64,000 bases of DNA from an uncultured Gammaproteobacteria bacterium (GTDB lineage Bacteria > Patescibacteriota > Microgenomatia > Levybacterales > UBA12049): contig CAYWEJ010000001.1 of the NCBI GenBank assembly GCA_964457465.1, positions 17,991 through 81,990 on the forward strand, read 5' to 3'. Shown in pieces: positions 1 through 41,951 of the stretch. The translations under genes and the position numbers were made by a program. How positions within the stretch are numbered: the stretch's first letter is position 1; every line of letters starts with the position of its first letter. Under the pieces are notes generated by a model that had not been told where the DNA came from, made no database searches, and saw only the letters and a list, made by a program, of their open reading frames with translations.

Positions 1-501
1 CATTTTGCCCAAGTTTATTTTTACCATTATCCGTTAGTTGGAAATATATTATCGTTTCCAAATAGAGCTGCAGCATCATATATTAAAAGAACTATCCATC
101 ACAAAAAAGTTGTTGCTCATGTCAGTAATCCACAGTTATGGGTAAGGGACTACTTTTTTTATACAAACACAATGAATAATTCTAACATACAGGAGATAAA
201 GCAAAAACTGAGAAATAAAGATTACAGTTTTAACAATCTTCAGTTCGTACAATGCACAGGCATTGTAGATGAAAAGAATGCTGTTGTGATTTATGAGGCA
301 TCCTGTACTCATAAATCACAACAAACTGCTCTTGAAATAGCACAATTGCGGGATAGTGCATCCGCATTTGAAATCTATAACGATTACTTATGTAAGCCAT
401 TTGGTCATAAAAGTTTTGTGTCATCAGTCCCACTCAAGAATTTGCATGTTGAGACAATTGAAGATAAGGAATTTTGTGAAACCTTTGTTATACAGTTGTA
501 A
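1..501 (+). CDS. hypothetical protein, probably 5'-truncated by the window edge (an internal ATG at 172 is an alternative start)
   Basis: Frame 1 has no stop codon from position 1 to the TAA at 499-501. The ORF track starts it at ATG 172. No recognisable domain. Convergent with the minus-strand gene that ends at 488. Confidence 0.3.
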   Translation, partial: HFAQVYFYHYPLVGNILSFPNRAAASYIKRTIHHKKVVAHVSNPQLWVRDYFFYTNTMNNSNIQEIKQKLRNKDYSFNNLQFVQCTGIVDEKNAVVIYEASCTHKSQQTALEIAQLRDSASAFEIYNDYLCKPFGHKSFVSSVPLKNLHVETIEDKEFCETFVIQL

Positions 502-2095
502 CTTTTTTCTTAAAGAAAAAAAGTATTGTCATAAAAAGTGATGCAACTGATATAAAATTAGAAATCATTCTAATTTTAGTCTCTTTAAATGCAATTTTTA
601 CTGCATGATTCCCTTCATTTATGCTGAAAGTAATTAATCCTTGATGATGCGGATCTTGAAATTGTATTGGTGTATTTTCGTTGTCAACATAAGCAGTCCA
701 ACCTGGGAAATAAAGAGTATTGTCTAATACTGTTATTTTTGTTGATGATTTCACATCAAAAGTATGAACGGTCGATAATCGTTGATAATTACTTACTTCC
801 CCTTCCCCTTCGATTATTTCAATTGGAGATTTGAATTTCTTTTCTGGGTCACCTGGTGACCAAATAGGAGTTGCTTCAGCACGAAATGTACTACTTCCTT
901 TATATGATTGGTAATACGTGTCGCTGTGTGTCGAACTTGGGAGCACTTTTATAAAAGGGAGGGCATATGCTGCTGAAAAAAGAGTAATAACAAAGAAAAA
1001 TTTCACTGACATTTTTTTATATAAGTGTACAAACAACATACAAGAAGCAATTGTCGGATAAAACATAAATCTCCATGGAAATTGAAATTTTTTGATAAAA
1101 TCACTTTTTTCCCAGATAAAATTTGATGCTTGCACGCTGAGAAATATCCCTCCTATAAAAATAAGGATCCAGAACAGAATTTGCACGTTCTTTTTAATAC
1201 CTTTTTTTATCAAGATAAAAGTACTTACTATCATGAGGAGCACTGCAGGAATTCCGATTTGGGCTGAGAGCCCTCCTATTTTGTTGATATCGTCGTCAAA
1301 TCCCCATGGAGAATAAATAAGGTGTAACAATGGAGCAAAGTGATCTTTGTACATATCTTTGTAAAAAATAAGAAAACTTGTGTATTTTGACTCAAGTAAG
1401 GAGGGTATCCAGAAGTAGGATGAAATACCAAGGCCTAAGATAATTACCGGGATCCATGAGGATAATGGATACTTCTTAAGTAGACAGTAGACTATAAAAA
1501 CAGGAGTGATCATAAGGCTTATTCCATTATGCGAGAGTAAGATTAGGCCAAAAGTAAGTGATCCTAGTATCGGCCTTTGCTTTTTAGCGTCAACTGAATA
1601 GAGCAATAGAGGGATAAGACTGAAAGCTAAAATTTCACCAATTGACCCTCTGACAAAAGTAGTTAAAAAACGGTACGGAAGTACAGTAGAAAAAATTGTT
1701 GCTAAGAACGCAAAATTTTTATCTGTAACTTCTTTTGCCCAAATAAACCAAAATAGTGGGCCAATTATAAAGGATAAACTGAGAAAAAAAATATATGCCT
1801 GCTCCAAACTTAGTCCAAGCATATGAAGTATTGCTGTGGCATAGCCTGCAAGGGGATAAAAAACAAGAAAAATTGGTGAGCCATATCCATAATTTAGTTC
1901 ATCAGCCCATCTTGGCGGGAACTGTCCTGCAAGGAATGCGTGTACGTAAGCATTTTCTCTTATTATATGTACAAATCCATCGTGTGTGATAAAAAAAGGA
2001 TGTATATAAATAGGCAAGAGCATGAGGAGTGAGATGCTAAGAATTATGAGAACGAGCATCTTATCAGAGAGATGAGTAAGCGAGCGCATATACAT
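488..2095 (-). CDS. polytopic membrane protein, YfhO-like (GT-C-type glycosyltransferase candidate)
   Basis: 535 aa with many hydrophobic helices. The C-terminal beta-rich domain '...TVLDNTLYFPGWTAYVDNE...' is followed by a C-terminal TM anchor. The same x-Y-x-P-x-W...V(D/N)G motif recurs in 7623-9842, 36344-39694 and 40050-41951. The family assignment is from memory of YfhO C-termini. Confidence 0.45.
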   Translation of the reverse strand: MYMRSLTHLSDKMLVLIILSISLLMLLPIYIHPFFITHDGFVHIIRENAYVHAFLAGQFPPRWADELNYGYGSPIFLVFYPLAGYATAILHMLGLSLEQAYIFFLSLSFIIGPLFWFIWAKEVTDKNFAFLATIFSTVLPYRFLTTFVRGSIGEILAFSLIPLLLYSVDAKKQRPILGSLTFGLILLSHNGISLMITPVFIVYCLLKKYPLSSWIPVIILGLGISSYFWIPSLLESKYTSFLIFYKDMYKDHFAPLLHLIYSPWGFDDDINKIGGLSAQIGIPAVLLMIVSTFILIKKGIKKNVQILFWILIFIGGIFLSVQASNFIWEKSDFIKKFQFPWRFMFYPTIASCMLFVHLYKKMSVKFFFVITLFSAAYALPFIKVLPSSTHSDTYYQSYKGSSTFRAEATPIWSPGDPEKKFKSPIEIIEGEGEVSNYQRLSTVHTFDVKSSTKITVLDNTLYFPGWTAYVDNENTPIQFQDPHHQGLITFSINEGNHAVKIAFKETKIRMISNFISVASLFMTILFFFKKKVTTV

Positions 2096-2164
2096 AATTT
2101 TATCGATTTTCCCTCTTGGTGTACAGATGACAATCGTGCAAAATAGATAGAGAATGTTTGCATT

Positions 2165-2905
2165 TTGTGTATAATAAATACTGTGAAATTATCAATTATT
2201 ATTCCAGCATATAACGAGGAAAAGACAATCACATCAATTTTGGAAGAGGTGCAAAATGTCAAAATCGACTCAGTAGATAAAGAAATAATTGTAGTCAATG
2301 ATCACTCAACCGACAGTACATCTAAAATTTTGGAAAAAATAGCCAAAACTAATTCTGCAATTAAAGTTTTTAGCCACGAAATTAATAAAGGAAAGGGTGC
2401 AGCAGTAAGAACCGGTTTTGAAAAAGCAACTGGTGACTATGTGGTCATCCAAGATGCAGATATGGAGTATAGTCCAAGCTATCTTGTTAGTTTATTAAAA
2501 CCAATCGTTTCTGGAGAAGCTCAGGTAGTTTTTGGAACAAGGCTTAGGGAAATCCCTGACTTAGAAGGGCATGGAACAATGTCAAAGACCCGTTTCCTTT
2601 TACACTTTTTTGGAAATAGATTTTTAAGTCTGATTACAAGCATTCTTTACTTCCAATGGATAACAGATATGGAGACATGCTACAAGATCTTCCCACGTAT
2701 TTTTTTAGAAAAAGCAAATTTGTCAGGTGAAGGTTTTAATTTTGAGCCAGAAATTACAGCAAAACTTATTAAGGCAGGCTATAAGATAGTTGAATTACCA
2801 ATTAAGACAAAGCCACGAGGTTATAACGAAGGAAAAAAACTACAAACATTTCCAGAGGGTTTTATCGCTCTGTGGACTCTTTTTAAGTACCGGTTCGTAA
2901 ATTAG
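2165..2905 (+). CDS. GT2 polyprenol-phosphate sugar synthase, Dpm1/GtrB-like (soluble form); true start probably GTG 2183 (MKLSIIIPAYNEE...)
   Basis: Contains IIIPAYNEE, 'VVNDHSTDST', 'IQDADMEY' (DXD) and 'DMETCYKIFPR' (D-x-x-C-G/Y-x-K motif of the Dpm1/GtrB/ArnC family). Its stop is one nucleotide before the start of an ArnT/PMT-like gene. Confidence 0.7.
   Translation: MCIINTVKLSIIIPAYNEEKTITSILEEVQNVKIDSVDKEIIVVNDHSTDSTSKILEKIAKTNSAIKVFSHEINKGKGAAVRTGFEKATGDYVVIQDADMEYSPSYLVSLLKPIVSGEAQVVFGTRLREIPDLEGHGTMSKTRFLLHFFGNRFLSLITSILYFQWITDMETCYKIFPRIFLEKANLSGEGFNFEPEITAKLIKAGYKIVELPIKTKPRGYNEGKKLQTFPEGFIALWTLFKYRFVN
2167..2175 (+). promoter_or_regulatory. extended -10 element (TGtgTATAAT) about 7 nt upstream of the in-frame GTG at 2183; putative leaderless promoter
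   Basis: Read directly: tgtgtataat. It lies inside the N-terminal extension that the ORF track assigns from TTG 2165. Confidence 0.35.
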
Positions 2906-2906
2906 T

Positions 2907-4586
2907 ATGTCAAAAGTGCTCGATTTTATTACAGAATGGTCGATTGGTATCTTAATAGCATTATTTCTATTAGCATCTTTTCTAAGATTGAATAGCCTTG
3001 ACCAAATCCCTGTTGGGCTCCACGCTGATGAAGCATACTTTGGATATAATGCTTACTCGATTGCTCAGACGCTAAGAGATGCTACTGGTAATTTTTTACC
3101 CATACATCTCCAGTCATTTTTATATAGCCCAGCAGGCTATTCATACATTGTTATTCCGAGTATGTATATTTTTGATCTCACGCCATTTGCAGTAAGATTG
3201 CCAGGGGTAATTTTTGGAATAGCAACGGTGGTTTTTTCATACTTTTTTGTCATGAAGCTATGCAAAAGCTTAAAATATAGCAAGCTTTTAGGACTCGCAG
3301 TCTGTGCGCTCCTTGCTATCTCTCCTTGGCATATCAATCTATCCCGAGCGTCAGCAGAGAATGTTGTCGTAGTTTTTCTTATAATGTGCGGTGTTTATTT
3401 TTACATTAAATGGGTCGACAAGCAGAAGAATTTGTTCATCATTCTTTCATTGGTTTTTTTCATAACGACATACTTTTTTTATCAAGCTCCTAGGGCTTTT
3501 CTTCCTCTTTTCTTACCAATTCTCTTTTTACTTTATAGACCAAGAGTCTCATTGAGAAAAGTTCTCATTATGGTAGGGCTATATGTATTTTGCATAGCTC
3601 TTCCTGTGTTTTTGATAATTTCATCTGACACTCTTTCGTATAGATTAAAAATGCTTTCTGTATTTAATTCCCCTAGAACAAATGCATTACTTTTTGAATC
3701 AATCACAGAGGACGGACATAGGCAGAGTCCAGTCCTGGAAGTCAGACTATTTCATAACAAAGTTGCAGGATATGCATCAGAGATATTTAGTGGCTATATG
3801 AAATATTTTTCGTATGACTTTTTATTTACAGACCAAAACTTTCCAGACAGGTATCGAGTTCCAAACATGGGCTTGCTTTACATTTTTGAATTACCATTTC
3901 TTATTGCTGGAATATACTTTATTTTTAGATATCGTGAGAAATTTGGGTATCTTTCTTTAGCTTGGGTTGCAATAGGCTTTATTGGTGCGTCTTTGACCTA
4001 CGATGATATCCCAAACCTTCAGAGAACCATTATTGTTTTTCCAGCACTGCATATTATTATTGGCTATGGAGTAATTAATGTATTCAGGTTTACCCCCAGG
4101 AAATATTTGCCTGCTTTTGGGATCATTTTTTCTTTAGTCGTACTATATTTCTTTAGCTATTATCTTCATCAATATTATGTTCATCAATTTGTTCGTAAGC
4201 CAATTTATCGTCAGCAGGGTTACAAAGAGCTTGTAGAGTCTTTGCAAATTGAGATTCCAAACTACAAGAGTTTTAATATTACTTCAAATGAATCGTCTCC
4301 ACTTATTATGTTTCTTTTTTACCTAAAATATGATCCGAAAGTATTTCAAAAATTTATTACAACTCAAAAACATAATTATCTTACAGAAGACTTTGGAAAA
4401 ATTAGTTTTGATCGATATAATTTTGTTCCCGAGGAATGCCCAAGTCATAAAAATACTGATCCGCTCATACTTTCTGTAGATTTAGGAAGATGCGGGGTGT
4501 CTGATAAAAAAAACATTGTCAAAGAAATCACCAGAAGCGATGGAAGTGTTGTTTTTAGGATTGTCAAGACAAATCGTAAGGAATAA
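2907..4586 (+). CDS. ArnT/PMT-like GT-C glycosyltransferase (GT39/GT83-like), paralog 1
   Basis: 559 aa. N-terminal TM followed by a loop with 'GLHADEAYFGYNAYSI' (acidic DE motif), then 'AISPWHINLSRASAENV', many TMs, and a C-terminal soluble domain 'LFYLKYDPKVFQKF'. Three paralogs at 10758-15715 share all of these. Confidence 0.65.
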   Translation: MSKVLDFITEWSIGILIALFLLASFLRLNSLDQIPVGLHADEAYFGYNAYSIAQTLRDATGNFLPIHLQSFLYSPAGYSYIVIPSMYIFDLTPFAVRLPGVIFGIATVVFSYFFVMKLCKSLKYSKLLGLAVCALLAISPWHINLSRASAENVVVVFLIMCGVYFYIKWVDKQKNLFIILSLVFFITTYFFYQAPRAFLPLFLPILFLLYRPRVSLRKVLIMVGLYVFCIALPVFLIISSDTLSYRLKMLSVFNSPRTNALLFESITEDGHRQSPVLEVRLFHNKVAGYASEIFSGYMKYFSYDFLFTDQNFPDRYRVPNMGLLYIFELPFLIAGIYFIFRYREKFGYLSLAWVAIGFIGASLTYDDIPNLQRTIIVFPALHIIIGYGVINVFRFTPRKYLPAFGIIFSLVVLYFFSYYLHQYYVHQFVRKPIYRQQGYKELVESLQIEIPNYKSFNITSNESSPLIMFLFYLKYDPKVFQKFITTQKHNYLTEDFGKISFDRYNFVPEECPSHKNTDPLILSVDLGRCGVSDKKNIVKEITRSDGSVVFRIVKTNRKE

Positions 4587-4590
4587 AAAC

Positions 4591-6251: not shown

Positions 6252-6252
6252 C

Positions 6253-6492: not shown

Positions 6493-6546
6493 ACAGCTAT
6501 CCTATCATAGGTACTCAAGAAATGCAAAACTTGTTACAATAGAAAT

Positions 6547-7626
6547 ATGAAGATAGCAATTTTCGATCCATATCTGAATACAATGTCGGGAGGAGAGAAG
6601 TATATGTTGTCTCTTGCGTTTTGTTTAAAGGAGGCACATGACGTCTCAATCATGTGGGATAAGTCACCAAAAGATGAGATAGTATCTCTTGCACGAAAAA
6701 GATTCTCATATAATCTTGAAGAATTTACATTTGTGTCTTCGATTTTCACCTCACAATTATCTATGCTTGATAGATATAGAAAAAGTAAGGAATATGATGT
6801 CGTTATCTATCTAAGTGATGGGAGTATCCCAGTTTTAGCATGTAGTCTTATTATTCATTTTCAGTCCCCTATGCTTTGGGTGCGAGGTAGGAGTATAAAA
6901 AATAGACTCAAACTAAAAAAAGCAAAAGATATAATATGCAATTCTAGATTCACCAAAAAATACATTGATAAATCATTTGGAGTTAATAGCACTGTTTTGT
7001 ATCCGCCGGTATTGCTTCAAGGATCAGTGAGTAATAAAAAAGAGAATCTCATTCTAAATGTAGGTAGATTCGGAATTAACCATGCTGGGTCAAGCTACAA
7101 GAAACAAGACGTTTTAGCTCAGGCTTTTGAAAAAATGGCAAAAGAGAATAACACGAAAGATTGGAGATTAGTTTTTATTATGAGCACTTTGGAGCAGGAT
7201 AGAGATGCTCTTGATGATTTTATTACAAAGTATAAAAAAAATAATATGGATTTTGTCATTAATCCTGATAACGATACATTATGGGAATATTATAGAAAAG
7301 CTAAAATTTATTGGCATGGAGCTGGATATGGCGAAGATGTCGACTTACATCCTGATCGAGCAGAACATTTCGGCATTTCAACAGTTGAAGCTATGGGAAT
7401 GGGGGCAGTGCCTGTTGTGTTTAGCGCTGGAGGTCAAAAAGAAATAGTTGATCATCAGGTAAATGGTATACTGTGGAGTACGCTAGATGAGTTAGAGCGA
7501 TACACTCTTGATCTTATGGAGAGTCAAGAACTCTTGGACAAGTTGTCAAAAAAGTCGATTATAGATGCTCAAAAGTATTCACTTGACTCATTCTGTCAGC
7601 ATATTAATGAAATAATCAGACAATGA
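6547..7626 (+). CDS. GT4 family glycosyltransferase
   Basis: N-terminal 'MKIAIFDPY...SGGEKYM' and C-terminal 'FGISTVEAMGMGAVPVVFSAGGQKEIV' (GT4 E-x7-E region). Confidence 0.7.
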   Translation: MKIAIFDPYLNTMSGGEKYMLSLAFCLKEAHDVSIMWDKSPKDEIVSLARKRFSYNLEEFTFVSSIFTSQLSMLDRYRKSKEYDVVIYLSDGSIPVLACSLIIHFQSPMLWVRGRSIKNRLKLKKAKDIICNSRFTKKYIDKSFGVNSTVLYPPVLLQGSVSNKKENLILNVGRFGINHAGSSYKKQDVLAQAFEKMAKENNTKDWRLVFIMSTLEQDRDALDDFITKYKKNNMDFVINPDNDTLWEYYRKAKIYWHGAGYGEDVDLHPDRAEHFGISTVEAMGMGAVPVVFSAGGQKEIVDHQVNGILWSTLDELERYTLDLMESQELLDKLSKKSIIDAQKYSLDSFCQHINEIIRQ

Positions 7627-9842
7627 AAAAAGATAAGATTTGGATTGCTCTTTTTTTATTCGCTGTATTAGCTTTTTTTCATCCCTTGCTCTCAAGCAAA
7701 GTCCCGATCCCTACTGATGTATTAGTAAACTTCTTTTATCCATTAAGGGATTCATATACAACTGAATACCCAAGAGGAGTCCCCTATAAGAACCCACTTA
7801 TAAGTGATCCTGTTACTCAACAAATTCCATGGAGAGCCCTCTCTGTAGATCTCATCAAAAGCGGACAGTTGCCTTTATGGAACCCATATCAAATGGCAGG
7901 ATACCCACTATTTCAAAATATTCAAAGTGCATCATTCTATATTTTTAATATTTTCTTCTTTATTTTTCCATTTATTGAGTCGTGGTCTCTATACATAATT
8001 TTAGAAGTTGTGTTAGCAGGAATTTTTATGTATTTATACTTGAGAAATCAGAATCTTTCTGCTGCTGCCGCGTTTTTTGGTGGGATTACTTTTTCATTTT
8101 CAGGTTTTTTTATATCTTGGTTAGAGTGGGGAACAATTGGACACACAGCGCTCTGGGCTCCACTTATGTTGTTAAGCGTTGATCGATTTCTTACATCAAG
8201 AAGGCTCTATTGGCTTGTGATTTTAGTATTTTCTCTTGCTTGCGCATTACTTGCTGGACATTTACAGACGTTCATTTATATTTTCTTGACTCTTTGTGGT
8301 TATATAATATACCAGGCTATTTGTCATAAAAAAATAACTTCAATTTTTCCTGTTTTTCTATCTATCATATTATTTATTTTTATTACAGCAGTTTTATGGA
8401 TTCCACAGCTACAATTTGTTCTTCAATCAGCAAGGAATGTAGATCAGGATTGGCATAGAGCAGGATGGTTTATCCCAATTCAAAATATAGTGCAATTTAT
8501 AGGACCAAATTTTTTTGGTAATCCAGCAACAGGAAATTATTGGGGATTATGGAACTATGGTGAATTTGTTGGTTATGTTGGGATTGCGCCATTGCTTTTT
8601 GCCATCTTGGCCTTGTGGAAAAAAGTAAGCGGTTATCTTTTTTGGTTTGTATTACTTGCCTTTGTTTTTCTATTTGCTTATGACAATCCTATTTCGCATA
8701 TTCCTTTTCAGCTATCTTTACCATTTATTGCCTCAACCCAGCCGACGCGATTAATTTTTTTAGCAGATCTCGCATTAAGTATTTTAGCAGCAAAAGGTTT
8801 AGAAAATTTTATGAGAGAGAAAAAAAACATCCTTCAGCCATTTATTTTGTTCTCAATATTATTTTTAGGAATATTTCTTTATGGTTTTATAGGGGTAAAA
8901 CTGCAAGTAATTTCTGCTGAGAATTTTAGAATCGCGTTTAAAAATCTTATAGTTCCTTTCATCTTATTTTTTGCAATTACAAGCGTATTAATTGTTAAAA
9001 AATGCATCAAAAAAATTCATTCCAATATATTTGTAATTTTTATAATTTTTTTGACAGTATTTGACCTTTTGTATTTTGCTCAAAAATATACAGTATTTTC
9101 GAATAAAGAATATTTTTATCCGAAAACAAAGATAATTAATTATTTAACCTCACAAAAAGATATATTTAGAGTAATGACCACAGATAGAAGCATTCTACAT
9201 CCAAATATATCAACCTTTTATAGAATACAAAGCGTAGATGGCTACGACCCGCTTTATCTGCAGCGATTTGGTGAATTTATGACTGCAGTTGATAGAGATC
9301 TACCTGACATAAGTGGACCTTTTGGCTTTAACAGAATAGTCCACAAAGATTATAAAGAATCTTCATTTTATAATCTCCTTGGTGTGAAGTATATATTGTC
9401 GTTAACAGATATAACGGAAAAGAATCTACGAAAAGTTTATCAAGAAGGTGAGACAAGAGTATATGAGAACGTAAACGTTTTTCCAAGAGTATTTTTTGTA
9501 GGTAGTGTTAAAAAAGCGTCTAGTAAAAATGAAGCAATTACTATGCTCTTTGAGCATAAATCTGATCTTTATAAAACTGCGATAGTGGAGAATACGCATC
9601 TACAAGATACAAATTTTTCAATTGGTGAAGTGACTATTTTAAAGTATTCTGAGAACAAAATAGTCATTAAAACTAAAAACAATGGAGAAGGATTTTTGGT
9701 TCTGACAGATGCATATTATCCTTCGTGGTCAGTTAGTATCGATGGAAAGAAACAGACGATAGTTCTTACAGATTTTACGTTTAGAGGAGTGGTTGTCCCC
9801 AAAGGCGATCATAAGGTAGAATTCAAGAATAATCTTATATGA
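7623..9842 (+). CDS. YfhO-like polytopic membrane protein (GT-C-type candidate)
   Basis: 739 aa with about 13 or more TM helices. C-terminal domain 'FLVLTDAYYPSWSVSIDGKKQTI...FRGVVVPKGDHKVEFKN' carries the shared YfhO-like motif. ATGA overlap upstream. Confidence 0.5.
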   Translation: MKKDKIWIALFLFAVLAFFHPLLSSKVPIPTDVLVNFFYPLRDSYTTEYPRGVPYKNPLISDPVTQQIPWRALSVDLIKSGQLPLWNPYQMAGYPLFQNIQSASFYIFNIFFFIFPFIESWSLYIILEVVLAGIFMYLYLRNQNLSAAAAFFGGITFSFSGFFISWLEWGTIGHTALWAPLMLLSVDRFLTSRRLYWLVILVFSLACALLAGHLQTFIYIFLTLCGYIIYQAICHKKITSIFPVFLSIILFIFITAVLWIPQLQFVLQSARNVDQDWHRAGWFIPIQNIVQFIGPNFFGNPATGNYWGLWNYGEFVGYVGIAPLLFAILALWKKVSGYLFWFVLLAFVFLFAYDNPISHIPFQLSLPFIASTQPTRLIFLADLALSILAAKGLENFMREKKNILQPFILFSILFLGIFLYGFIGVKLQVISAENFRIAFKNLIVPFILFFAITSVLIVKKCIKKIHSNIFVIFIIFLTVFDLLYFAQKYTVFSNKEYFYPKTKIINYLTSQKDIFRVMTTDRSILHPNISTFYRIQSVDGYDPLYLQRFGEFMTAVDRDLPDISGPFGFNRIVHKDYKESSFYNLLGVKYILSLTDITEKNLRKVYQEGETRVYENVNVFPRVFFVGSVKKASSKNEAITMLFEHKSDLYKTAIVENTHLQDTNFSIGEVTILKYSENKIVIKTKNNGEGFLVLTDAYYPSWSVSIDGKKQTIVLTDFTFRGVVVPKGDHKVEFKNNLI

Positions 9843-12473: not shown

Positions 12474-12494
12474 TTATTGGTATACTGAAATTGT

Positions 12495-15715: not shown

Positions 15716-15767
15716 AAACCCTGTTGCAAGTTGTAAAATAAGTCATATACAATCGTATGTATTATTG

Positions 15768-31638: not shown

Positions 31639-31666
31639 TTGTTTTTTAATATTCAAGTACTATAAA
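31639..31666 (+). promoter_or_regulatory. candidate promoter (TTGTTT - N16 - TATAAA) in the 44-bp divergent gap; its -10 ends about 8 nt before ATG 31675 (leaderless or near-leaderless)
   Basis: Read directly from the intergenic sequence 'cttgttttttaatattcaagtactataaactcaaaatATG'. Confidence 0.35.
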
Positions 31667-31674
31667 CTCAAAAT

Positions 31675-33404: not shown

Positions 33405-33407
33405 TTC

Positions 33408-35624
33408 ATGATTACACCAAATTTTGAATTTAATGCAAGAAAGTTTTCAAAAAAGATTTTATTTAGAATTGACACTCTAGTTTTATTTTCCCTTTTTCTC
33501 CTTGTTGCATTTTTTTATAGGAAAGCATTTTTAGGTTATTTTCAGGGTGATGAATGGTATTATTTTTCTCAGTACTTGCCACTGACAAAAAATGGTGGTG
33601 GATTATTTGGAGCAATCTCAAAAAGCATATTTTCTTTTGGAGAAATTTCAGGAGGTGGTCACTTAACTCCTGTCTATTCAGCAATCTGGTATATTCATAA
33701 TAAGTTCTTTGGTCTACATGCGAATTTGTATATTGTTGCAAGTTTAATTGTACACGCGTTAAATAGTTTCCTCATTTATTTAATTGTAAAAAAGTTTTGT
33801 AAAAATTTTATAATAGCTTTTTTATCTGGGTTTTTCTTTGCATGTTCATATCAGCATTTTCAAGCGGTGACATGGATTATGGCATATGTTCCTACTGTAT
33901 ACTCGGTACTTTTTTCTCTTTTATCGTTATATTTCTTGCAGTGGTATTGCTATAAATCGAATGTAATATATATTCTTTTAACTTTTACTTTTCTAGTTCT
34001 TGCTTTACTAACAAAAGAAACCGCATTTATTATTCTTGTTGTGAGTCCAATCGTTGTCTACTTCCTTAAAAGGAAATTTTTTAAAAAAGTAGTTTTATTT
34101 AATGTATTAACAGCAATTTCGTATATAGCTTTTCGTTTCGGTATGCCTGCTGTTCTTCATGAAAATTCTTCTCAAAATTTTTTAAGTGTTTATACTCCAC
34201 AGTTGTTTATTTTTAGGTTGTTTACATATCCAGTTAGACTTCTTGTAGAGATGTACATTCCACAAGAGTTTGTTCTTAGACTTATTGAATATATTACTCC
34301 ACTGGGTTATCCAACGTATGGCGCAGAAAAGCTTGTAAGAGGAATAAATTTTTTAACATTTACTCAAGGACCTGGAAGTGACCTTTTTATATATCCTGCA
34401 GGAGTGTTCTTTGTGCTAATAATCTTATTATTACTGTTCTCACAAAGAAGAAAAAAAAATATATACAACCTTGTATTTATCGGTCTTGCAATAATATTTT
34501 TATCAGCGCTACCCCTTCTTCTCATTGCTTTGTATGCACCAGGATGGGCTTATGTTACATTTATTGATTCGAGGCATTTATATTTTCCATCAATAGGAGG
34601 ATCAATGATTTTTGCTGCTCTGGTTTATAGCATAACGAAATATATTAAAAAATATATTGATAGCAATATGCTATTTTATATCTGGTTTGTGTTGATCGCT
34701 TTATGGATATACGCGCAATATTTCTTATTTCAGACCCAACTAAGCAAAGAGCTTCTTACAGGACAGCAAAGAAAAACAGTAATAAGTAAAATATTGACTT
34801 CTGTCCCAGAGATTAGGAAGGATGCATTCTTTTTAGTTCAGAGCAACACAGGCTATTATGGCTTTGGTCCAATACCACCATTCCAAACAAATCTTAGTCA
34901 AATTTTGGCTATACAGTATTTTGCTTTAAAGCAGCTGCCACAGGAATTTTTAACTGACTATAGTATTACCTCAAAAGGTTTGTCAGGTGAGGGAATACTA
35001 AAACATAATGATAGGCAGTTTGGATTTTTTATTAACCAATCAACATTAATAAACAAGCTACTTGATCAAAAAATATCAAAAAATGATATTTACGCTTTTT
35101 CGTGGGATGGAAATGCAAATTCAATCAGTGATATTTCAGAGGATATAAGAAATAAATTTAATATGGCTAAAAGTCGCTATGATAAATATCATTCATGGGA
35201 TAGAATTTATCTATCAAAGTCAAATATTAGAATGATGGTTCCAAGAAGTTTTGTTATCAGTAAGCCTTTACTCGAAACTAATCAGCAAGATAATCTTATG
35301 TTAAGCTTAGGCCCTGAGAGGTACCAAATAATAGTTTGGAAGAAGACAGTTAATAAGGGTATCTTTGAAGATATAGCATTTTTGAATAATAGTGATGGTG
35401 AAGAAATAGGAGAGAATTTTTATTACCGTGACATTGAGCGTATTGATGGTGAAAAAATTATTTCTAGGATGTCTTTAAAAGGTAGTTCAATGCAATATTT
35501 TTTGCCAACAATAAGCTCAGGATATATCGTGGAAGTTCGAGTTCTTGATAAGAGTAGCATCCTTAATGGGCATGATGATTTTGCTGAAGATTTAATTAGG
35601 CTTTTCTCAAACATTGATGAGTAA
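33408..35624 (+). CDS. polytopic membrane protein (GT-C-like candidate) with a large C-terminal extracytoplasmic domain
   Basis: 738 aa. The first loop has 'FQGDEWYYFSQY', followed by about 11 TM helices and a roughly 300-aa hydrophilic C-terminus. Confidence 0.4.
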   Translation: MITPNFEFNARKFSKKILFRIDTLVLFSLFLLVAFFYRKAFLGYFQGDEWYYFSQYLPLTKNGGGLFGAISKSIFSFGEISGGGHLTPVYSAIWYIHNKFFGLHANLYIVASLIVHALNSFLIYLIVKKFCKNFIIAFLSGFFFACSYQHFQAVTWIMAYVPTVYSVLFSLLSLYFLQWYCYKSNVIYILLTFTFLVLALLTKETAFIILVVSPIVVYFLKRKFFKKVVLFNVLTAISYIAFRFGMPAVLHENSSQNFLSVYTPQLFIFRLFTYPVRLLVEMYIPQEFVLRLIEYITPLGYPTYGAEKLVRGINFLTFTQGPGSDLFIYPAGVFFVLIILLLLFSQRRKKNIYNLVFIGLAIIFLSALPLLLIALYAPGWAYVTFIDSRHLYFPSIGGSMIFAALVYSITKYIKKYIDSNMLFYIWFVLIALWIYAQYFLFQTQLSKELLTGQQRKTVISKILTSVPEIRKDAFFLVQSNTGYYGFGPIPPFQTNLSQILAIQYFALKQLPQEFLTDYSITSKGLSGEGILKHNDRQFGFFINQSTLINKLLDQKISKNDIYAFSWDGNANSISDISEDIRNKFNMAKSRYDKYHSWDRIYLSKSNIRMMVPRSFVISKPLLETNQQDNLMLSLGPERYQIIVWKKTVNKGIFEDIAFLNNSDGEEIGENFYYRDIERIDGEKIISRMSLKGSSMQYFLPTISSGYIVEVRVLDKSSILNGHDDFAEDLIRLFSNIDE

Positions 35625-35675
35625 ATAGTAAATTAATTATCTAAAAATGAATCTAAAAAGGTATACTATAATTAT

Positions 35676-36347
35676 ATGAAAAAATTTGAAAAAAATTATT
35701 TTTCAGGATGGTATAAAGGTGCGGTCGGTGATTTTACAGTTAGTGATCTAAACAGATCAAAAAATTGGTTTTGGGCATGGCTTAAAAAATTAGATACTTA
35801 CGTACATGTTCAGCAAGGAAAGAATAGGGATGTGCTGGAAGTTGGTTGTTCAATTGGGGCAGTTGCTTCCCTTCTTAGTGAGAGAGGTTTTAATGTTTGG
35901 GCCTCGGATGTATCTAGATATGCTGTTAGCAAGGCGAAAAAATTAACGCCTAAAGCGCACTTCTTGACAATTGATATTCAGAAGAAGTTAAACATCAAAA
36001 AAAAGTTTAACATTATTATAGCCTTTGAGGTTGTAGAGCATTTAGAAAAACCACAGTTAGGCATTAATAATATTTTTGCAGGATTGAAGAGAGGTGGTGT
36101 TGCCGTTATTTCAACGCCATATCCATACAAGTGGAATTTCCGAGACCCTACTCATATAAATGTAAAATATCCAGATGAATGGGTGAGCATGATGAGGAAG
36201 GCTGGGTTTGTCAATGTAAAGTATTATAGGTTTACACTACTACCGTTCTTCTACCGTTTTAATAGACACTTTCAAATTATCATACCTTTTGCAATCCCAT
36301 TACCTTATGTTAACAGCCCAATATTTTTTATTGGGTACAAAAAATGA
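35676..36347 (+). CDS. class I SAM-dependent methyltransferase
   Basis: 'VLEVGCSIGAVAS' and 'IIIAFEVVEHL'. Confidence 0.6.
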   Translation: MKKFEKNYFSGWYKGAVGDFTVSDLNRSKNWFWAWLKKLDTYVHVQQGKNRDVLEVGCSIGAVASLLSERGFNVWASDVSRYAVSKAKKLTPKAHFLTIDIQKKLNIKKKFNIIIAFEVVEHLEKPQLGINNIFAGLKRGGVAVISTPYPYKWNFRDPTHINVKYPDEWVSMMRKAGFVNVKYYRFTLLPFFYRFNRHFQIIIPFAIPLPYVNSPIFFIGYKK

Positions 36348-39300
36348 TTAAAAAATTATTTTCTATTAAGAACATAGAGATTCTATTTATCCTGATAATA
36401 GGACTTGCTCCTCTTTTATGGTTTTCTTATTCTCAGGTTATTTTAGGCCATGATGCTGGCCTCCCAATAGATCCTCAAAATCATTTTCAAGATCGACTTT
36501 TTGCATGGACTGAAAGATATGCATTTGGATCTGACCAGACATATGCGTTACCTGGATTTTTTATTCATGGGTTTGAAGCTCTAGTTTCATCTATTGGCTT
36601 TTCATTATTTTGGGAACAAAAAATTACTTTTATTTTTTGGTTTTTAATTCCAGGGGTAACGATGTATTTCTTGGGAAGATACCTTGAGAAGAAATTTTCG
36701 ATATCCCACCTTGCCTTTCCAGCTACTGTTTTATATATGTATAATCATTTTTTACTTCAAGGTTGGTTTGTTGCTGAGAGAACAAAATTTTCCCTGTATG
36801 CAGCTCTCCCTCTACTGTTGTTAATTCTTTTTAAGTGGCAAGAGAAAAATATAGGCACTCTTAAATCTAGTATATATATTTCACTTTTGTTTTTTATTTT
36901 AAACGGTATGGCGAGCTTGCCTCTTTTTGGAGGTATATTCGTTTGCTTGATTGTGTATGTAATTTTTTATTTCTTAGAAAATTTAACCATTAAAGGACTT
37001 CTAGACTTACTACAATTAATTATTTTTACTGGAATAATAAGTGTGCTCTTGCAGTCATATTGGTTGATTTCCTATGCAGACTATTTACTTGGTTCATATT
37101 CTCAGTCTGTAGTTTTTTTTGGAGGGTTTGATGGTGTCATAAGTTGGGTTAAATATATCAGTGAGAACACATCACTTATTAATTTGTTAAGACTACAGGG
37201 GATTCCGGAGTGGTATCAAAACCCTTTGCACCCATACGCTAAAGATTATCTTAACAATGTGTTTTTCATTGGTGTTAGCATGGTTTTTCCAATACTTGCT
37301 TTTTTGCCTTTAGTTCTCTTTAAGGCTAAAAAAATTAAAAAATATGTATTGTTTTTTTCTTTCCTCGCTCTTTTTTCTATGATCTTTATTGGTGGTTCAC
37401 ATCCTCCATTCGGTGGGCTCTATCTTTTGTTCATAAAAATTATTCCTGGATTCTTAGCATTTAGAACTCCATTCTATAAATTTTCTCCAGCTTTATGGAT
37501 TTCTTATTCAATACTAATCGGTTTAAGTATAAGTTATTTTACAGTTTTTTTGAAAAAAAGATCTGTAAATGTCTCTTATCTTTTTTATTTTCTCTTTGCC
37601 GTATGTGTTATCTTTTATAGTTATCCTTTTTTAACAGGGAGCTTTTTTGATTACATGAAAAATGTTAGGACAATGAGGACCAATTTGCCACATTATGTTC
37701 TCGATTTTTCAAAATGGACGCAATCTCCTGAAAATAGTAATAAAAGAATATTGATGCTACCAGCTCCTAATCCAGATAGTAAGATTGAGGCATATACATG
37801 GGGCTACTGGAGCCTTGCACCCTTAAGCACATTATATTCCAACGCATCAATTATTAATGATAGTCACTACTTCAGTGATAACGAAAAAATGATCCTTCAA
37901 GATATGTTTGAGGCAATTCGAAAAAATGATCCTTCATGGACAAAATTTATAAAAATTTTAGGAATAGATTCTGTAGTTGTCAGGAAAGATTTTGCCTGGA
38001 ATCTTCCTGACTCTCCGACACAGTCTCCTGATGCCTATATTCAAGCTTTGCATAAAAGCAAGATTAAAAAAACGAAGTCTTTTGGAGAATGGGATCTATA
38101 TACAATATCTGAGACTTCGGGTGAAAAAATAAATTCATCATCAAAAGTTCATTATTTTGACGGCTCAGGGAAAGACATAGGTAAATTGATAGAAGTACCG
38201 GGTTTTGATGTGAGCATACCTATCTATGCGTCGTCGGACCCTTCAGATAATCAAGATAAGGTATTTAATGCAAGCGCGGACTACATTATTCATCCAGCTT
38301 GTCTTATGTGTGACCTTCAATATAAATATATTGACCCTGCAAAATATTCTTCGCTAATAACAAGGGATTCACTATTTTATCAGTACACAAAGCAGAAAAA
38401 TAGCATAGATATGAATAATCAGGACATGGTTACTGTTTTTTATCAGATATACAGAGAATATTTGCAGTTTTCAAGGCTAATAATTGAAGATAAAGATCAA
38501 CAGTTAATCATTGACAGTGGGAAAGATATGGAGAAAATGATTCAGTTGGCTCAAGAAAAGTTGTCATCAGCGATTAGTGATAGAAAACTACCCAATGAGT
38601 ATGAGCTAAATGATCTCGTTAGTGTTATGAGATCGGTTCAAATGGGCCTTGCGAAAAATATAAAAGATGTATCTGGACGATATAATGATTATCAGGTTTT
38701 TAGCATTATTCAGTCAAACATTGATTCCGTGATTAGTGCTAAGACAAGACTGATTGGTCTTATTGGACTTACGAGCAATAAGGCTTCAAAAAGTTTTATA
38801 GTTAACTCAAAAATAAGTGGGAAGTTCGATCTTTTTTATAAATTAAACGATCAGGTTGCAAAGAGCAAAATTCAAATAAAAATAAATGGTGTAAATAGTG
38901 AGATCAGCCAGATTGACCCTGCTAAGGATTGGTATACACAAAAAAATATACTGTTATCTAGGGGTAAAAACACTCTAGAGGTCTTTCAGTCGTCAATTGA
39001 TTTCTATGAGGGGGATAGAGAACATCTTGTAGTAGCTAAACCATCAGGAGGGTGCTTTATTTCAAAAACAATCTCTGGAAATGTGGGTGATGTTGTAAAG
39101 ACATCTTTTCTCTATAAAACAATTCAAGGCGATCAGTCATTTTATGTTAAATTTATTAAGGAAAAAGATAAGAGGAATTATCTTGATTCTGAAGATGAAC
39201 TTAGGCCTGCTGCTGTGAATATTCAATACACAAACCTTTTCGTTCTTCAAACGCATGAACCTTATGTTTTAGAGATTTGCAACAGACCATTTGCTAATCC

Positions 39301-39694
39301 TGATACAGATTTTGTAACAACGCTTCAAGTTGAAGACTTTTCCTTAATTAGGTTAGTAAGCCCTGAGGCATTTTTTGTTAGTCAACTTTCAAAAGGCAAC
39401 AGCTCAACAGTGGTGTATGAGAGAAAAGATCAGACAAAATATGAAGTTTCTTCAATTACTGGTAATGACATCCTCATCTTAAATGATTCTTACAGTCCAA
39501 GATGGAAAACAGATTTTCCAACGAGTATTCATTTTATGGCAAATGGCTACAGTAATGCATGGCTTGTGGAAGGGAGCAAATCAGGGGCTGTGTCGTATTC
39601 TCCACAAAGAACTGTTTTAATTGGTTTTTTGATTTCATCAGTCACGCTTTTAGTGGTAACATCATATGTATTACTTCGTAAAAAGAAAAAATGA
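36344..39694 (+). CDS. very large YfhO/AftD-like membrane protein (1116 aa): N-terminal polytopic region, large extracytoplasmic domain, C-terminal TM anchor
   Basis: About 13 TM helices in the first ~430 aa. The C-terminus carries 'LILNDSYSPRWKTDF...' (shared YfhO-like motif) and then the TM anchor 'LIGFLISSVTLLVVTSYVLL'. Confidence 0.45.
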   Translation: MIKKLFSIKNIEILFILIIGLAPLLWFSYSQVILGHDAGLPIDPQNHFQDRLFAWTERYAFGSDQTYALPGFFIHGFEALVSSIGFSLFWEQKITFIFWFLIPGVTMYFLGRYLEKKFSISHLAFPATVLYMYNHFLLQGWFVAERTKFSLYAALPLLLLILFKWQEKNIGTLKSSIYISLLFFILNGMASLPLFGGIFVCLIVYVIFYFLENLTIKGLLDLLQLIIFTGIISVLLQSYWLISYADYLLGSYSQSVVFFGGFDGVISWVKYISENTSLINLLRLQGIPEWYQNPLHPYAKDYLNNVFFIGVSMVFPILAFLPLVLFKAKKIKKYVLFFSFLALFSMIFIGGSHPPFGGLYLLFIKIIPGFLAFRTPFYKFSPALWISYSILIGLSISYFTVFLKKRSVNVSYLFYFLFAVCVIFYSYPFLTGSFFDYMKNVRTMRTNLPHYVLDFSKWTQSPENSNKRILMLPAPNPDSKIEAYTWGYWSLAPLSTLYSNASIINDSHYFSDNEKMILQDMFEAIRKNDPSWTKFIKILGIDSVVVRKDFAWNLPDSPTQSPDAYIQALHKSKIKKTKSFGEWDLYTISETSGEKINSSSKVHYFDGSGKDIGKLIEVPGFDVSIPIYASSDPSDNQDKVFNASADYIIHPACLMCDLQYKYIDPAKYSSLITRDSLFYQYTKQKNSIDMNNQDMVTVFYQIYREYLQFSRLIIEDKDQQLIIDSGKDMEKMIQLAQEKLSSAISDRKLPNEYELNDLVSVMRSVQMGLAKNIKDVSGRYNDYQVFSIIQSNIDSVISAKTRLIGLIGLTSNKASKSFIVNSKISGKFDLFYKLNDQVAKSKIQIKINGVNSEISQIDPAKDWYTQKNILLSRGKNTLEVFQSSIDFYEGDREHLVVAKPSGGCFISKTISGNVGDVVKTSFLYKTIQGDQSFYVKFIKEKDKRNYLDSEDELRPAAVNIQYTNLFVLQTHEPYVLEICNRPFANPDTDFVTTLQVEDFSLIRLVSPEAFFVSQLSKGNSSTVVYERKDQTKYEVSSITGNDILILNDSYSPRWKTDFPTSIHFMANGYSNAWLVEGSKSGAVSYSPQRTVLIGFLISSVTLLVVTSYVLLRKKKK

Positions 39695-40053
39695 AAAATA
39701 TCATTAGAGAAATTAGCTTGGTATTTAGTTACATTGAAAAAAATAGTTTTAAGATATTATTTTCAATTGGGATTTTTCTTCTTTTTTCATATATTTTTTC
39801 ATTGCCTTACATAAATCTTCTTGATGCATTTTTCGGATATTTTCCGCACGTTTTTTCTTTGATGGTGTTGTTATTTTTATTAAAACCACCTAAAAATGCT
39901 CTTTTACTAACAGCGCTTATTTTATTTTTATCGTCATATATTTTTATTGTGTTAAACATTAAATTTGTTGCAGATCTTTTAGGAACTATATGCTACTTTC
40001 TTTTAATGACATACGTAATACATGAGATAAAGAGCTCGTTTTTAGACACATGA
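39691..40053 (+). CDS. small four-TM membrane protein (GtrA/GtcA-like candidate)
   Basis: 120 aa with four hydrophobic helices. ATGA-coupled between two YfhO-like genes and two genes upstream of the GtrB-like synthase. Confidence 0.35.
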   Translation: MKNIIREISLVFSYIEKNSFKILFSIGIFLLFSYIFSLPYINLLDAFFGYFPHVFSLMVLLFLLKPPKNALLLTALILFLSSYIFIVLNIKFVADLLGTICYFLLMTYVIHEIKSSFLDT

Positions 40054-41951
40054 TTGATATACTAGGAGCAGATTGGCGTTTTTTTTGGCCTGAAAATATA
40101 CATTTTTTTTCTGGGACTCCACAAGCATGGGATGCAAGTCTTAATTCAGGTTTAGGAATTTCTGGACTCGCAACGATGTGGATAACAAGTTATCTTAATA
40201 TAACTGCGGTATTCGCAAAGATAGGCATTCCATGGTTAGTAGTCGGAATTTTTTTTTGGATTCTACCAATCTTCATTGTTTCATTTATTGCTTCTGCACT
40301 ATTATTTAAAAAAACAGTCTCAGCAGAAAAGAAGTATTATTTATTCTCAGGTTTGGTATATGCATGGAACACGTATATTCTCGGGATAGTGGGTGGAGGT
40401 CAATTGGGGGTTGGTTTGTCCTATTCAATTTTACCCTTAATTTTTTTAAGTTTTTATTTCTTACATAAAAAACCAAACTTTACTAGAAGCATTTTGTTTT
40501 CCTTAGTTTGTAGTCTTCAAATTTTATTTGATCCTCGTTTTTTCTATATTAGTTTGATTGGGCTCATCGTTTTCTATTTCGGGATATGTAACAAATTTCG
40601 CATCAACCTTAGGAATGTCATTTTTATTTTTATCGTCCCAGTTGTTATTATTTTTGTATTCAATGCATATTGGCTCATTCCGTTACTGCTGGCAACCTCT
40701 TCGTCTCTTCCTGAAAAAATTAGCACTCAAAGCAGCCTAACTTTTTTGAGTTTTGCTCGTTTTTCGCAGGCAATTTCACTTCTTCATCCCAATTGGCCAG
40801 AAAATATATTTGGAAAGGTATATTTTTTTCAGCCACAATTTCTTTTCTCACCGATACTATTAGCAGTAGGGCTTTTTTTACAGAAAAAAAATAGCAGAAT
40901 TTTTTTAAGCTATATTTTGCTTATTGTAATAGGGGTATTTATATCAAAAGGAGTTAATGAGCCTTTTGGGATAATTAATGTAATACTTTTTCACCATATC
41001 CCTGGTATGGTTTTATTTAGAGATCCCACAAAGTTCTACATATTGACTGCAATTTCATATGCAATGCTCCTCCCATTTGCTATGCAGCAGTTAAGTGCTT
41101 GGCAGAATAAAAAAAGGACATTCATAGTTTTATTAATAGTTAGTTTTTGGGTTTTACTTCCATTTTCAACTTTTTATCTTGGAAACGGATTTGAAAATTT
41201 TGTACCAAAGAAAATACCAGAAAAATATGTACTTCTTAAAAATTTTCTATTGTCAACGAAGGGTTTTTCTCGAACTTATTGGGTACCAGAATGGGAGAAG
41301 TATGGCTATTTCTCAAATAAGACTCCAGCTTTGGGAATGAGCGAATTTTTTGACAAGAAAGACGTGAAAATAAATCAGCAATCCATCCTGCCTACTCGTG
41401 ATGATTTGGCAAATCTATCTGTTAAATATGTGATTTTATCAAAAAACGATAGTAGTCTTAAGACAAACCCTGCTAGGGAGATTCTTCAGTACGAAGAAAA
41501 TAGAAAATATCTTGACTCAACTCCATGGCTTAGACATGTAACATCCTTCGACGATTTACGAGTATATAGCTTTTCTGATGGCAAAGCACATTTTTGGAGT
41601 GATAATAAAGATTTATTGATACGAACATTATCTGCTTCACAGAGTGAACACAAACTTTTGGTAAGCAATGTCAAAAAAGAAAGTACTATTATTTTCACTG
41701 AAACCTATGATCCAAATTGGGAGATGATTGTTAACGGCATATCATTCCGCTCTAGTCCCTATAGAAATCAATATAATAAATTTACTCTTAATAAAGAGGG
41801 TAATTATGAAATAGTAATTTCATATAGGCTTCAAAACGTTGTTCAGAAAACGATAATTGCTAGCAACTCTATAATTTTTCTTCTATTCCTTTATGTAGTT
41901 CTTTCTCTCCAATTCCCAAAGCTAAAGATACGTAGCTTTCGAAAGAAGTAG
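40050..41951 (+). CDS. YfhO-like polytopic membrane protein (GT-C-type candidate)
   Basis: 633 aa with many TM helices. C-terminal 'IIFTETYDPNWEMIVNGISF...' motif plus a terminal TM anchor. Confidence 0.45.
   Translation: MIDILGADWRFFWPENIHFFSGTPQAWDASLNSGLGISGLATMWITSYLNITAVFAKIGIPWLVVGIFFWILPIFIVSFIASALLFKKTVSAEKKYYLFSGLVYAWNTYILGIVGGGQLGVGLSYSILPLIFLSFYFLHKKPNFTRSILFSLVCSLQILFDPRFFYISLIGLIVFYFGICNKFRINLRNVIFIFIVPVVIIFVFNAYWLIPLLLATSSSLPEKISTQSSLTFLSFARFSQAISLLHPNWPENIFGKVYFFQPQFLFSPILLAVGLFLQKKNSRIFLSYILLIVIGVFISKGVNEPFGIINVILFHHIPGMVLFRDPTKFYILTAISYAMLLPFAMQQLSAWQNKKRTFIVLLIVSFWVLLPFSTFYLGNGFENFVPKKIPEKYVLLKNFLLSTKGFSRTYWVPEWEKYGYFSNKTPALGMSEFFDKKDVKINQQSILPTRDDLANLSVKYVILSKNDSSLKTNPAREILQYEENRKYLDSTPWLRHVTSFDDLRVYSFSDGKAHFWSDNKDLLIRTLSASQSEHKLLVSNVKKESTIIFTETYDPNWEMIVNGISFRSSPYRNQYNKFTLNKEGNYEIVISYRLQNVVQKTIIASNSIIFLLFLYVVLSLQFPKLKIRSFRKK

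Follow-up and report, generated by a model that had tools for sequence, protein, structure and literature searches.

The window considered here, a 64,000-nucleotide stretch of contig CAYWEJ010000001.1 (assembly GCA_964457465.1) with a guanine-cytosine content of ~33%, is as a whole a surface-glycan locus of more than 55 kb in a Levybacteria-type genome (Microgenomates, Patescibacteria). Four of its open reading frames (ORFs), designated P1 to P4, encode large membrane proteins that a first-pass annotation had described as a family of four YfhO-like paralogs sharing a C-terminal β-domain motif. They are indeed built on a common plan, with a polytopic transmembrane (TM) core carrying an aspartate in its first loop, an extracytoplasmic α/β domain and a terminal β-sandwich. 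They are however new members of already known families of glycosyltransferases with the C-type fold (GT-C), and not a recently expanded family of YfhO paralogs. The ORFs, their four motif strings and the length of the largest copy proved to be as claimed:

488-2095, minus strand: P1, a GT-C protein of 535 amino acids, PF10131 (PTPS_related), with ~9 TM helices, a β-domain at residues ~428-508 and a TM helix at residues 510-528; motif at nucleotides 677-733.
7623-9842, plus strand: P2, a YfhO-family GT-C protein of 739 amino acids, which ends with its β-domain and has no C-terminal TM helix; motif at nucleotides 9696-9749.
36344-39694, plus strand: P3, an AftD-like GT-C protein of 1116 amino acids; motif at nucleotides 39473-39517, TM helix at residues 1087-1115 (nucleotides 39602-39688).
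40050-41951, plus strand: P4, an MmpA/AftD-like GT-C protein of 633 amino acids; motif at nucleotides 41688-41738, TM helix at residues 593-619 (nucleotides 41826-41906).

The motif takes the form [YF]xPxW and lies 47-90 residues from the C-termini, at residue 455 of 535 in P1, 692 of 739 in P2, 1044 of 1116 in P3 and 547 of 633 in P4. Among the 49 ORFs of the window, exactly these four carry it within their last 110 residues, against a mean of 0.33 after shuffling (P ~0.001). Could so short a stretch, whose conserved core amounts to Y/F, P and W and whose strict form occurs in only 13 of 35 P3-family and 15 of 34 P4-family members, simply have arisen by chance, or from the composition of AT-rich, β-rich tails? 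This is extremely improbable. When the C-terminal parts of the family alignments (34 sequences for P1, 35 for P2, 35 for P3 and 34 for P4) were compared using hhalign, E-values of 2.9e-22 were obtained for P3 and P4, 1.6e-15 for P1 and P2, 6.8e-14 for P2 and P4, 1.7e-9 for P1 and P4, 1.1e-6 for P2 and P3, and 1.6e-5 for P1 and P3, whereas the 72 controls (12 with reversed profiles and 60 with shuffled columns) stayed at or below a probability of 5.2%, with a best E of 0.0075. The comparisons involving P2 include no TM helix, yet their E-values still span 1e-6 to 1.6e-15. Across 42 C-terminal domains taken from the four families and aligned together, the tryptophan of the motif is invariant, and 22 of these 42 domains, taken in isolation, match the YfhO model PF09586 (best E 1.1e-11), which bears out the YfhO-type C-terminus proposed at first. 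A search of the sequences in the Protein Data Bank (PDB) with the combined C-terminal-domain profile (hmmsearch) returned nothing significant. Mutual similarity extends well beyond the short motif, and the profile comparisons indicate that the shared stretch reflects genuine homology.

In the AlphaFold2 (AF2) models, the motif sits on a strand-turn-strand element and forms the turn of a β-hairpin (strands 546-552 and 557-561 in P4, 1042-1046 and 1054-1056 in P3) within a terminal β-sandwich of ~75 residues. The extra C-terminal TM helix that had been noticed in three of the proteins is also there: a hydropathy scan, which makes the N-terminal half of each protein polytopic, places a single hydrophobic helix at residues 510-528 of P1, 1091-1109 of P3 and 602-620 of P4, with none in P2, and the AF2 models have TM helices at 593-619 in P4 and 1087-1115 in P3. 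This helix, which anchors the β-domain in the membrane again, is a family trait of P1, P3 and P4, being present in 34/34, 35/35 and 33/34 members respectively, versus 4/35 in the YfhO family of P2.

Within the window, BLASTP connects only P3 with P4 (E 2e-4, 26.6% identity, in the TM core) and P4 with P2 (E 0.006), and mutual identity among the four remains below 27%. Recent duplication in this genome or lineage would fit the finding of all four in one locus, with the same architecture and the same motif. However, P1 has no BLAST match to the other three, while the true PMT_2 paralogs of the same window find each other at E 1e-43 to 1e-92; moreover, P1-P4 each have their own orthologues, 40-60% identical, in other Microgenomates, and they fall into different Pfam families. 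A recent origin by duplication is very improbable, and can be considered effectively refuted. What stands of the proposed paralog family is a relationship at the profile level, both in the C-termini and in the TM cores. For the latter, hhalign gives E 2e-31 for P3 and P4, 3e-20 for P1 and P2, ~1e-17 to 1e-19 for P1 and P4, ~1e-12 for P1 and P3, and 7e-11 for P2 and P4, the weakest pair being P2 and P3 (E 3e-5). When single sequences are compared with profiles, most pairs among P1-P4 reach probabilities of 91-99%, versus at most 74% for nine other polytopic proteins of the window. These nine large membrane ORFs (15657-17501, 17505-19514, 29130-30629, 33408-35624, 20325-21785, 2907-4586, 10758-12473, 49324-50757 and 46257-49334) were tried as additional members of the group and rejected, their best match having a probability of 74% and E 2.8e-5, and none carrying the motif. 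The relatedness of the TM cores, together with this contrast with other polytopic proteins, argues for a real and ancient GT-C sub-branch with a YfhO-type terminal β-domain. We consider it likely that P1-P4 are anciently diverged members of one such sub-branch (YfhO / PTPS_related / AftD-MmpA), and that they are glycosyltransferases decorating a surface glycan.

The assignment to GT-C is based on both structure and family. Foldseek matches of the P3 and P4 models include AftD, STT3, PglB, ArnT and AftA, while the P1 and P2 families belong to the Pfam GT-C clan CL0111, in which PTPS_related is listed (PMC7801869). Three of the proteins exceed the gathering score of a different family each (PF10131 for P1, PF09586 for P2 and PF11847 for P3), and P4 exceeds none. 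The aspartate that follows the position of the first TM helix (TM1) is invariant in three families (D39 in P1, D37 in P3 and D8 in P4) and nearly so in the fourth (D32 in P2). The families also have an invariant basic residue in a loop of the form FRxPxKF / PWRF / PTRL.

P2 scores 95.6 bits against PF09586 (gathering threshold 28.5) over most of the model length and is, by this measure, a bona fide YfhO. In Bacillus, Staphylococcus and Listeria, YfhO serves as GT-C enzyme in the CsbB/GtcA/YfhO systems that glycosylate teichoic acid. The P2 family is very large, with 36,837 representative clusters at E<=1e-3. The description of all four proteins as YfhO-like holds only for P2 in full. P1 reaches PF09586 with a sub-threshold 18.3 bits, and only through its C-terminus (residues 441-505 on model positions 763-825 of 835); P3 and P4, searched as whole proteins, do not match this model at all. 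P1 instead scores 38.4 bits against PF10131 (gathering score 26.4) between residues 79 and 361, on profile positions 3-286 of 621, and most of its orthologues, which are found in Levybacteria, carry the same domain. PTPS_related is an uncharacterised family of the GT-C clan, with no known function. In the P1 family, H38 and D39 vary little or not at all. When P2 and P3 were searched against the PDB sequences using phmmer, nothing significant was found.

P3 is the largest of the four, and its AF2 model has a predicted local distance difference test (pLDDT) score of 87.6 and a predicted template modelling score of 0.80. It is composed of a TM core (residues 1-431), an α/β soluble GT-C domain (~436-650), a four-helix bundle (665-807), two β-sandwiches (815-940 and 951-1085) and a final helix (1087-1115) that ends one residue before the C-terminus. 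The very large extracytoplasmic insert attributed to this protein thus corresponds to the ~650 residues lying between the TM core and the last TM helix. Within this region, C653, C656, C904 and C979 (residues 653-979) are invariant in the 35 members of the family, and some homologues are tagged PF18915 (DUF5667); the four-helix bundle is located between the soluble GT-C domain and the β-sandwiches. The family is found across Patescibacteria with lengths of 1100-1190 amino acids, and its invariant residues are H36, D37, R374 and K379.

The resemblance to AftD that had been suggested for P3 is borne out by two kinds of evidence. Residues 39-584 match PF11847 (GT-C_AftD) with a marginal 30.1 bits for a gathering score of 26, a match shared by many P3 orthologues and by 2 of the 34 P4-family members. 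AftD is also, with a wide lead, the top Foldseek match of the whole model (6W98_A, E 7e-15, TM-score 0.47/0.41); STT3, PglB and AftA come next, and the single β-sandwiches match carbohydrate-binding modules (CBMs). The H36-D37 pair and R374/K379 lie at positions comparable to those of the essential AftD residues K39, D41, E251, K361 and D474, a correspondence of position and not a residue-level alignment. In AftD itself, 11 TM helices precede the soluble GT-C domain, after which come three CBMs, one structural β-sandwich, TM12 as a single re-entrant helix, and TM13-16 (10.1101/2019.12.22.885152).

Is P3 then a genuine arabinofuranosyltransferase, using polyprenyl-phospho-arabinofuranose? The PF11847 score, the whole-length structural match and the name "alpha-(1->3)-arabinofuranosyltransferase family protein", which the PGAP annotation pipeline gives to P3 homologues, all point this way. 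However, the identity to AftD in the structural alignment is only ~10%, P3 has no TM13-16, and in a search of the PDB the P3 profile reaches AftD at E 0.058, through the terminal β-domain (profile positions 1041-1114 on AftD 1198-1272). No gene for a UbiA-type phosphoribosyl transferase or a DprE1/E2-like protein was found among the window ORFs scanned, and sugar specificity is not conserved at such evolutionary distances in GT-C families. An arabinofuranosyltransferase is therefore quite improbable, and the PGAP name is probably an over-interpretation. The models support a likeness of architecture and remote homology between P3 and AftD, not orthology.

P4 has no match to any Pfam family. In NCBIfam, its residues 270-364 match MmpA (NF053599) locally, with 34.9 bits and E 6.8e-9, and because this score is far below the equivalog cutoff of 210, P4 is a relative of MmpA and not a member of that family. 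The same local match is found in 31 of 34 P4-family members (best E 2e-11) vs 2 of 35 in the P3 family. The AF2 model (pLDDT 83.1) has AftD as its top Foldseek match (E 1e-7). In these sequence comparisons, P4 is closest to the AftD-like P3 and to mycobacterial MmpA.

The N-terminus of P4 is unusual. The GT-C norm is a cytoplasmic N-terminus followed by a TM1 ahead of the catalytic loop; such a helix is present in P1, P2 and P3, but not in P4. The protein starts as MIDILGAD8W, directly in the first extracytoplasmic loop of the P3 alignment and with the invariant D8, and there is an in-frame stop 8 codons upstream of its ATG. TM1 is absent from 30 of the 34 family members, the distant ones alone carrying it, and the alignment indicates that the family has lost its first TM helix. 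The N-terminal tail of ~60 residues is net negative (K+R 1.9, D+E 3.8), and the loop behind the first TM helix carries a strong positive charge. P3 has the same pattern in its first extracytoplasmic loop and in the cytoplasmic loop that comes next. From this charge bias an N-out topology is predicted, with the tail translocated and its invariant aspartate outside the membrane. Four residues never vary within the P4 family (D8, R324, D325 and K328), and in the alignment with P3 they fall on the positions of its own invariant D37 and R374/K379.

These features bear on whether P4, and possibly P3, is an enzyme at all, or instead a scaffold or lipid-handling factor with a vestigial GT-C fold, in the manner of MmpA, whose annotation is that of a trehalose-lipid delivery protein. 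The latter would agree with the absence of the canonical TM1 and with MmpA being the sole NCBIfam match of 31 of the 34 family members; mutants of MmpA have lipid-transport phenotypes, and transferase activity of that protein has not been demonstrated (PMC8698533). It is nevertheless unlikely, given the invariance of the four residues aligned with those of P3 and a charge distribution predicted to keep the aspartate-bearing tail outside the membrane. A gene for a GtrB/ArnC-like donor synthase lies directly downstream of P4 here, and within 10 kb downstream of the P4-type gene in half of the species-level loci (38 of 75, from a survey of 80). Mycolate synthesis is not known from Patescibacteria. 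Finally, it has been suggested that MmpA itself may be a glycosyltransferase (preprint 10.64898/2026.07.31.741767).

The genes surrounding P1-P4 are as follows:

2165-2905, plus strand: short family 2 glycosyltransferase (GT2) of AglJ/PpgS/DPMS type, presumed polyprenyl-phosphate sugar synthase, divergent from P1.
9839-10786, plus strand: generic GT2 of the GT-A fold (PF00535, 86 bits), overlapping the P2 stop codon.
33408-35624, plus strand: polytopic protein of 738 amino acids with a weak GT-C signal (PMT_2, E 0.0015), without the C-terminal motif.
35676-36347, plus strand: class I S-adenosylmethionine methyltransferase (Pfam Methyltransf_23/11/25), overlapping the P3 start codon.
39691-40053, plus strand: ORF of 120 amino acids with four TM helices, joined by ATGA overlaps to the stop codon of P3 and to the start codon of P4.
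41992-42930, plus strand: GT2 of GtrB/ArnC type, presumed polyprenyl-phosphate sugar synthase and donor-maker of P4.

The assignment of the last of these is based on full-length PDB matches to ArnC (E 1e-45), GtrB sll0501 (E 1.5e-38) and DPMS, on NCBIfam matches to ArnC (185 bits), PgfS and AglJ, and on 29.8% identity over 292 amino acids to E. coli GtrB/YfdH. The short GT2 matches AglJ (119.6 bits) and PpgS (63.8 bits) over nearly its full length, its best PDB match being DPMS 5MLZ (E 1.8e-15); its divergent pairing with P1 is kept in the Levybacteria relative L086, where a P2 orthologue belongs to the same cluster.

Gene order around P3 is conserved. A methyltransferase gene, a P3-type gene and a four-TM ORF of 120-135 amino acids follow one another in five loci (the window, L001, L003, L004 and L005), although no methyltransferase is called in L005; in L001, L003 and L004 it lies upstream of the P3 homologue, as in the window. 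The four-TM ORF directly follows every P3-type gene examined (L001 13354-13716, L003 5223-5591, L004 13480-13887, L005 13384-13755), and tracks this gene rather than P4. It has no Pfam family (E<=1), no NCBIfam family and no PDB match at E<=10, AftD included; an hhalign comparison of its family with E. coli GtrA/YfdG gave a probability of 0.1%, a weak test with only five sequences. The 738-residue protein is kept upstream of the methyltransferase/P3 pair. The P4-type gene and its GtrB-like GT2 come directly after the P3-type gene and four-TM ORF in the window, L003 and L005. In L001 (13717-18538) and L004 (13884-19993), these two pairs are separated by an opposite-strand block for sugar-nucleotide biosynthesis, probably a nucleoside diphosphate (NDP)-heptose pathway; the domains encoded there are of the SIS, GHMP kinase, nucleotidyltransferase and epimerase types, and in L001 also of the HAD-type phosphatase kind. 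In the survey of P4-type genes, a P3-type gene was found within 10 kb upstream in 29 of 69 loci. The methyltransferase at 35676-36347 was also tried as a counterpart of MtrP, and gave only generic class I methyltransferase matches.

From fold, homology, conserved residues and gene neighbourhood, a mechanism can be proposed. The cytoplasmic GT2s encoded beside the GT-C genes (41992-42930 and 2165-2905) would charge polyprenyl phosphate with a monosaccharide. Once this lipid-linked sugar had been flipped across the membrane, each GT-C enzyme would transfer it, on the extracytoplasmic side, to a surface glycopolymer that the locus produces with its Wzx/Wzy-type machinery. GT-A/GT-C gene pairs are known to define multi-component transmembrane glycosylation systems (PMC8035078). 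The C-terminal β-domain, with the extra β-sandwich of P3, most likely holds the acceptor glycan in the manner of the CBM-like domains of AftD, Emb and GT136; for AftD and GT136 enzymes, acceptor binding by CBMs of the β-sandwich type at the C-terminus has been described (10.1101/2019.12.22.885152; PMC11127046). P1-P4 are most likely extracytoplasmic GT-C glycosyltransferases that depend on lipid-linked sugars.

Several points weigh against this interpretation. Donor sugar, acceptor and catalytic competence are inferred from family knowledge, as are topology and the role of the β-domain. The P3 and P4 profiles do not retrieve AftD from the PDB at a significant level (E 0.058 for P3, no match for P4; hmmsearch), and the AftD link thus rests on a marginal Pfam score and on similarity of fold. 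TM1 is missing from the P4 family, whose nearest named relative, the Corynebacterineae membrane protein MmpA, is required for the export of trehalose mycolates and is described as a factor of lipid transport and not as an enzyme (PMC8698533). As for the partners, the GT2 next to P2 (9839-10786) is not clearly a polyprenyl-phosphate synthase, its ArnC/DPMS-type matches in the PDB and NCBIfam covering the N-terminal half only, and P3 is without a neighbouring GtrB-like gene of its own. Finally, the window yielded no GtrA-type flippase, its only small membrane ORF (39691-40053) having no similarity to GtrA.

The window as a whole encodes nine GT2 and six family 4 (GT4) glycosyltransferases, together with one short ORF having only a GT4 N-terminal domain, and also NDP-sugar epimerases/dehydratases, a DegT aminotransferase, a GNAT protein, a hexapeptide acyltransferase and two methyltransferases. 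A set of PMT_2-type GT-C proteins is also present, as are the following:

24110-25372: Wzx-type flippase.
46257-49334, plus strand: Wzy_C fusion protein.
55218-55883: initiating transferase (WbaP-type, Bac_transf).

The locus ends with a DUF4012 protein of 658 amino acids (55898-57874, plus strand) just before recO, and the housekeeping genes (recO, aminoacyl-tRNA synthetase, mraZ and rsmH) start only at ~57.9 kb. The Wzy_C protein is 1025 amino acids long with ~20 TM helices; the O-antigen polymerase/ligase domain occupies residues 223-427 in its N-terminal half, and the C-terminal half (residues ~528-695) is similar by BLAST to PMT_2-type GT-C proteins. Counterparts of ~1010 amino acids occupy the equivalent place in L005 and also in L003, where the end of the contig truncates the protein. 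Three tandem PMT_2-type GT-C genes are found at 10758-15715 (plus strand; mutual identity 36-37%, E ~1e-89 to 1e-92) and a fourth copy, 26-29% identical to this trio, at 2907-4586 (plus strand); their similarity marks these copies as true recent paralogs of the locus. The ORF with the GT4 N-terminal domain (217 amino acids, 43040-43693, plus strand) overlaps a downstream full-length GT4 gene (43690-44817, plus strand), a pair kept in L003 (190 + 392 amino acids) and L005 (177 + 374 amino acids). Three further polytopic proteins of 614, 669 and 499 amino acids (15657-17501, plus; 17505-19514, plus; 29130-30629, minus) belong to no Pfam or NCBIfam family, and have weak or nil profile similarity to the four GT-C families. 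For P1, P3 and P4, the nearest homologues belong to metagenome bins of Candidatus Levybacteria and of other Microgenomates/Patescibacteria. Many GTDB species-representative records with Levybacteria-type P4 genes (L009, L012, L014-L018 and others) are labelled "uncultured Gammaproteobacteria bacterium" (TPA_asm), which looks like a placeholder or a wrong taxonomy.

What does all this amount to? A Patescibacteria lineage with a small genome gives a very large locus to extracytoplasmic glycosylation, with four GT-C proteins of the YfhO/AftD branch, seven more membrane proteins with a PMT_2-type GT-C signal and three large polytopic proteins without a family. A YfhO-type C-terminal β-domain is defined across PF09586, PF10131, and the AftD-like and MmpA-like families. 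Annotation also benefits, the P4 family being listed until now as "hypothetical protein" and the P3 family probably over-named as arabinofuranosyltransferases. The finding is real but mostly ordinary, and its novelty is modest; the TM1-less MmpA-like P4 family, its frequent pairing with P3 and the conserved four-TM ORF are more interesting, if unproven.

They lead to a wider proposal, which is possible but doubtful: the Microgenomates block made of the methyltransferase, P3, the four-TM ORF, P4 and the GtrB-like GT2 would be the deep counterpart of an envelope locus of Mycobacteriales in which mmpA, aftD and the methyltransferase gene mtrP form one conserved and phenotypically correlated unit (preprint 10.64898/2026.07.31.741767). 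MmpA has been said to have no homologues outside Corynebacterineae (PMC8698533), and the P4 family would then provide the first. P4 would be an unusual GT-C protein in which TM1 has been lost and the catalytic loop is exposed in the form of a translocated tail at the N-terminus. MmpA in turn would be, or derive from, a polyprenyl-phosphate-sugar-dependent glycosyltransferase acting alongside AftD. As for the 120-residue ORF, a role as flippase or as the detached TM13-16 module of AftD is speculation. In any case, an unannotated family of Patescibacteria is brought by a testable link to MmpA, an essential mycobacterial protein.

How do these proteins compare with the systems already described? 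In component sizes, the set formed by the four-TM ORF, P4 and the GtrB-like GT2 is the same as the Gtr systems of O-antigen glucosylation (GtrA, GtrB and a serotype-specific GT-C protein), but its gene order differs and the 120-residue ORF has no similarity to GtrA. P1 and its orthologues pass the PTPS_related threshold over the TM core, whereas the C-terminus of P1 is recognised by the YfhO model instead. P2 resembles the known YfhO systems in the overlap with a downstream GT2 gene and in having Y-x-P-x-W followed by V/I-D-G at the model end, although this GT2 is not clearly like the CsbB/GtrB partners of those systems. P1, P3 and P4 add a C-terminal TM helix mostly absent from the YfhO family, in which P2 alone scores above threshold.

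Compared with AftD, P3 repeats the domain order up to TM12, including the conserved aspartate near residue 40. It has two β-sandwiches and a four-helix bundle in place of three CBMs and a structural sandwich, and it does not have TM13-16, the acyl carrier protein (ACP)-binding membrane bundle of AftD. As for MmpA (NCgl2761/Rv0226c), it comprises a polytopic core, a single extracytoplasmic domain and a final TM helix, and is homologous in part to AftD's N-terminal half (PMC8698533). P4 differs from it in being devoid of TM1 and in being paired with a GtrB-like GT2, but it has the same layout. Both are short proteins related to the N-terminal half of AftD, and both are encoded near an AftD-type gene and a methyltransferase gene.

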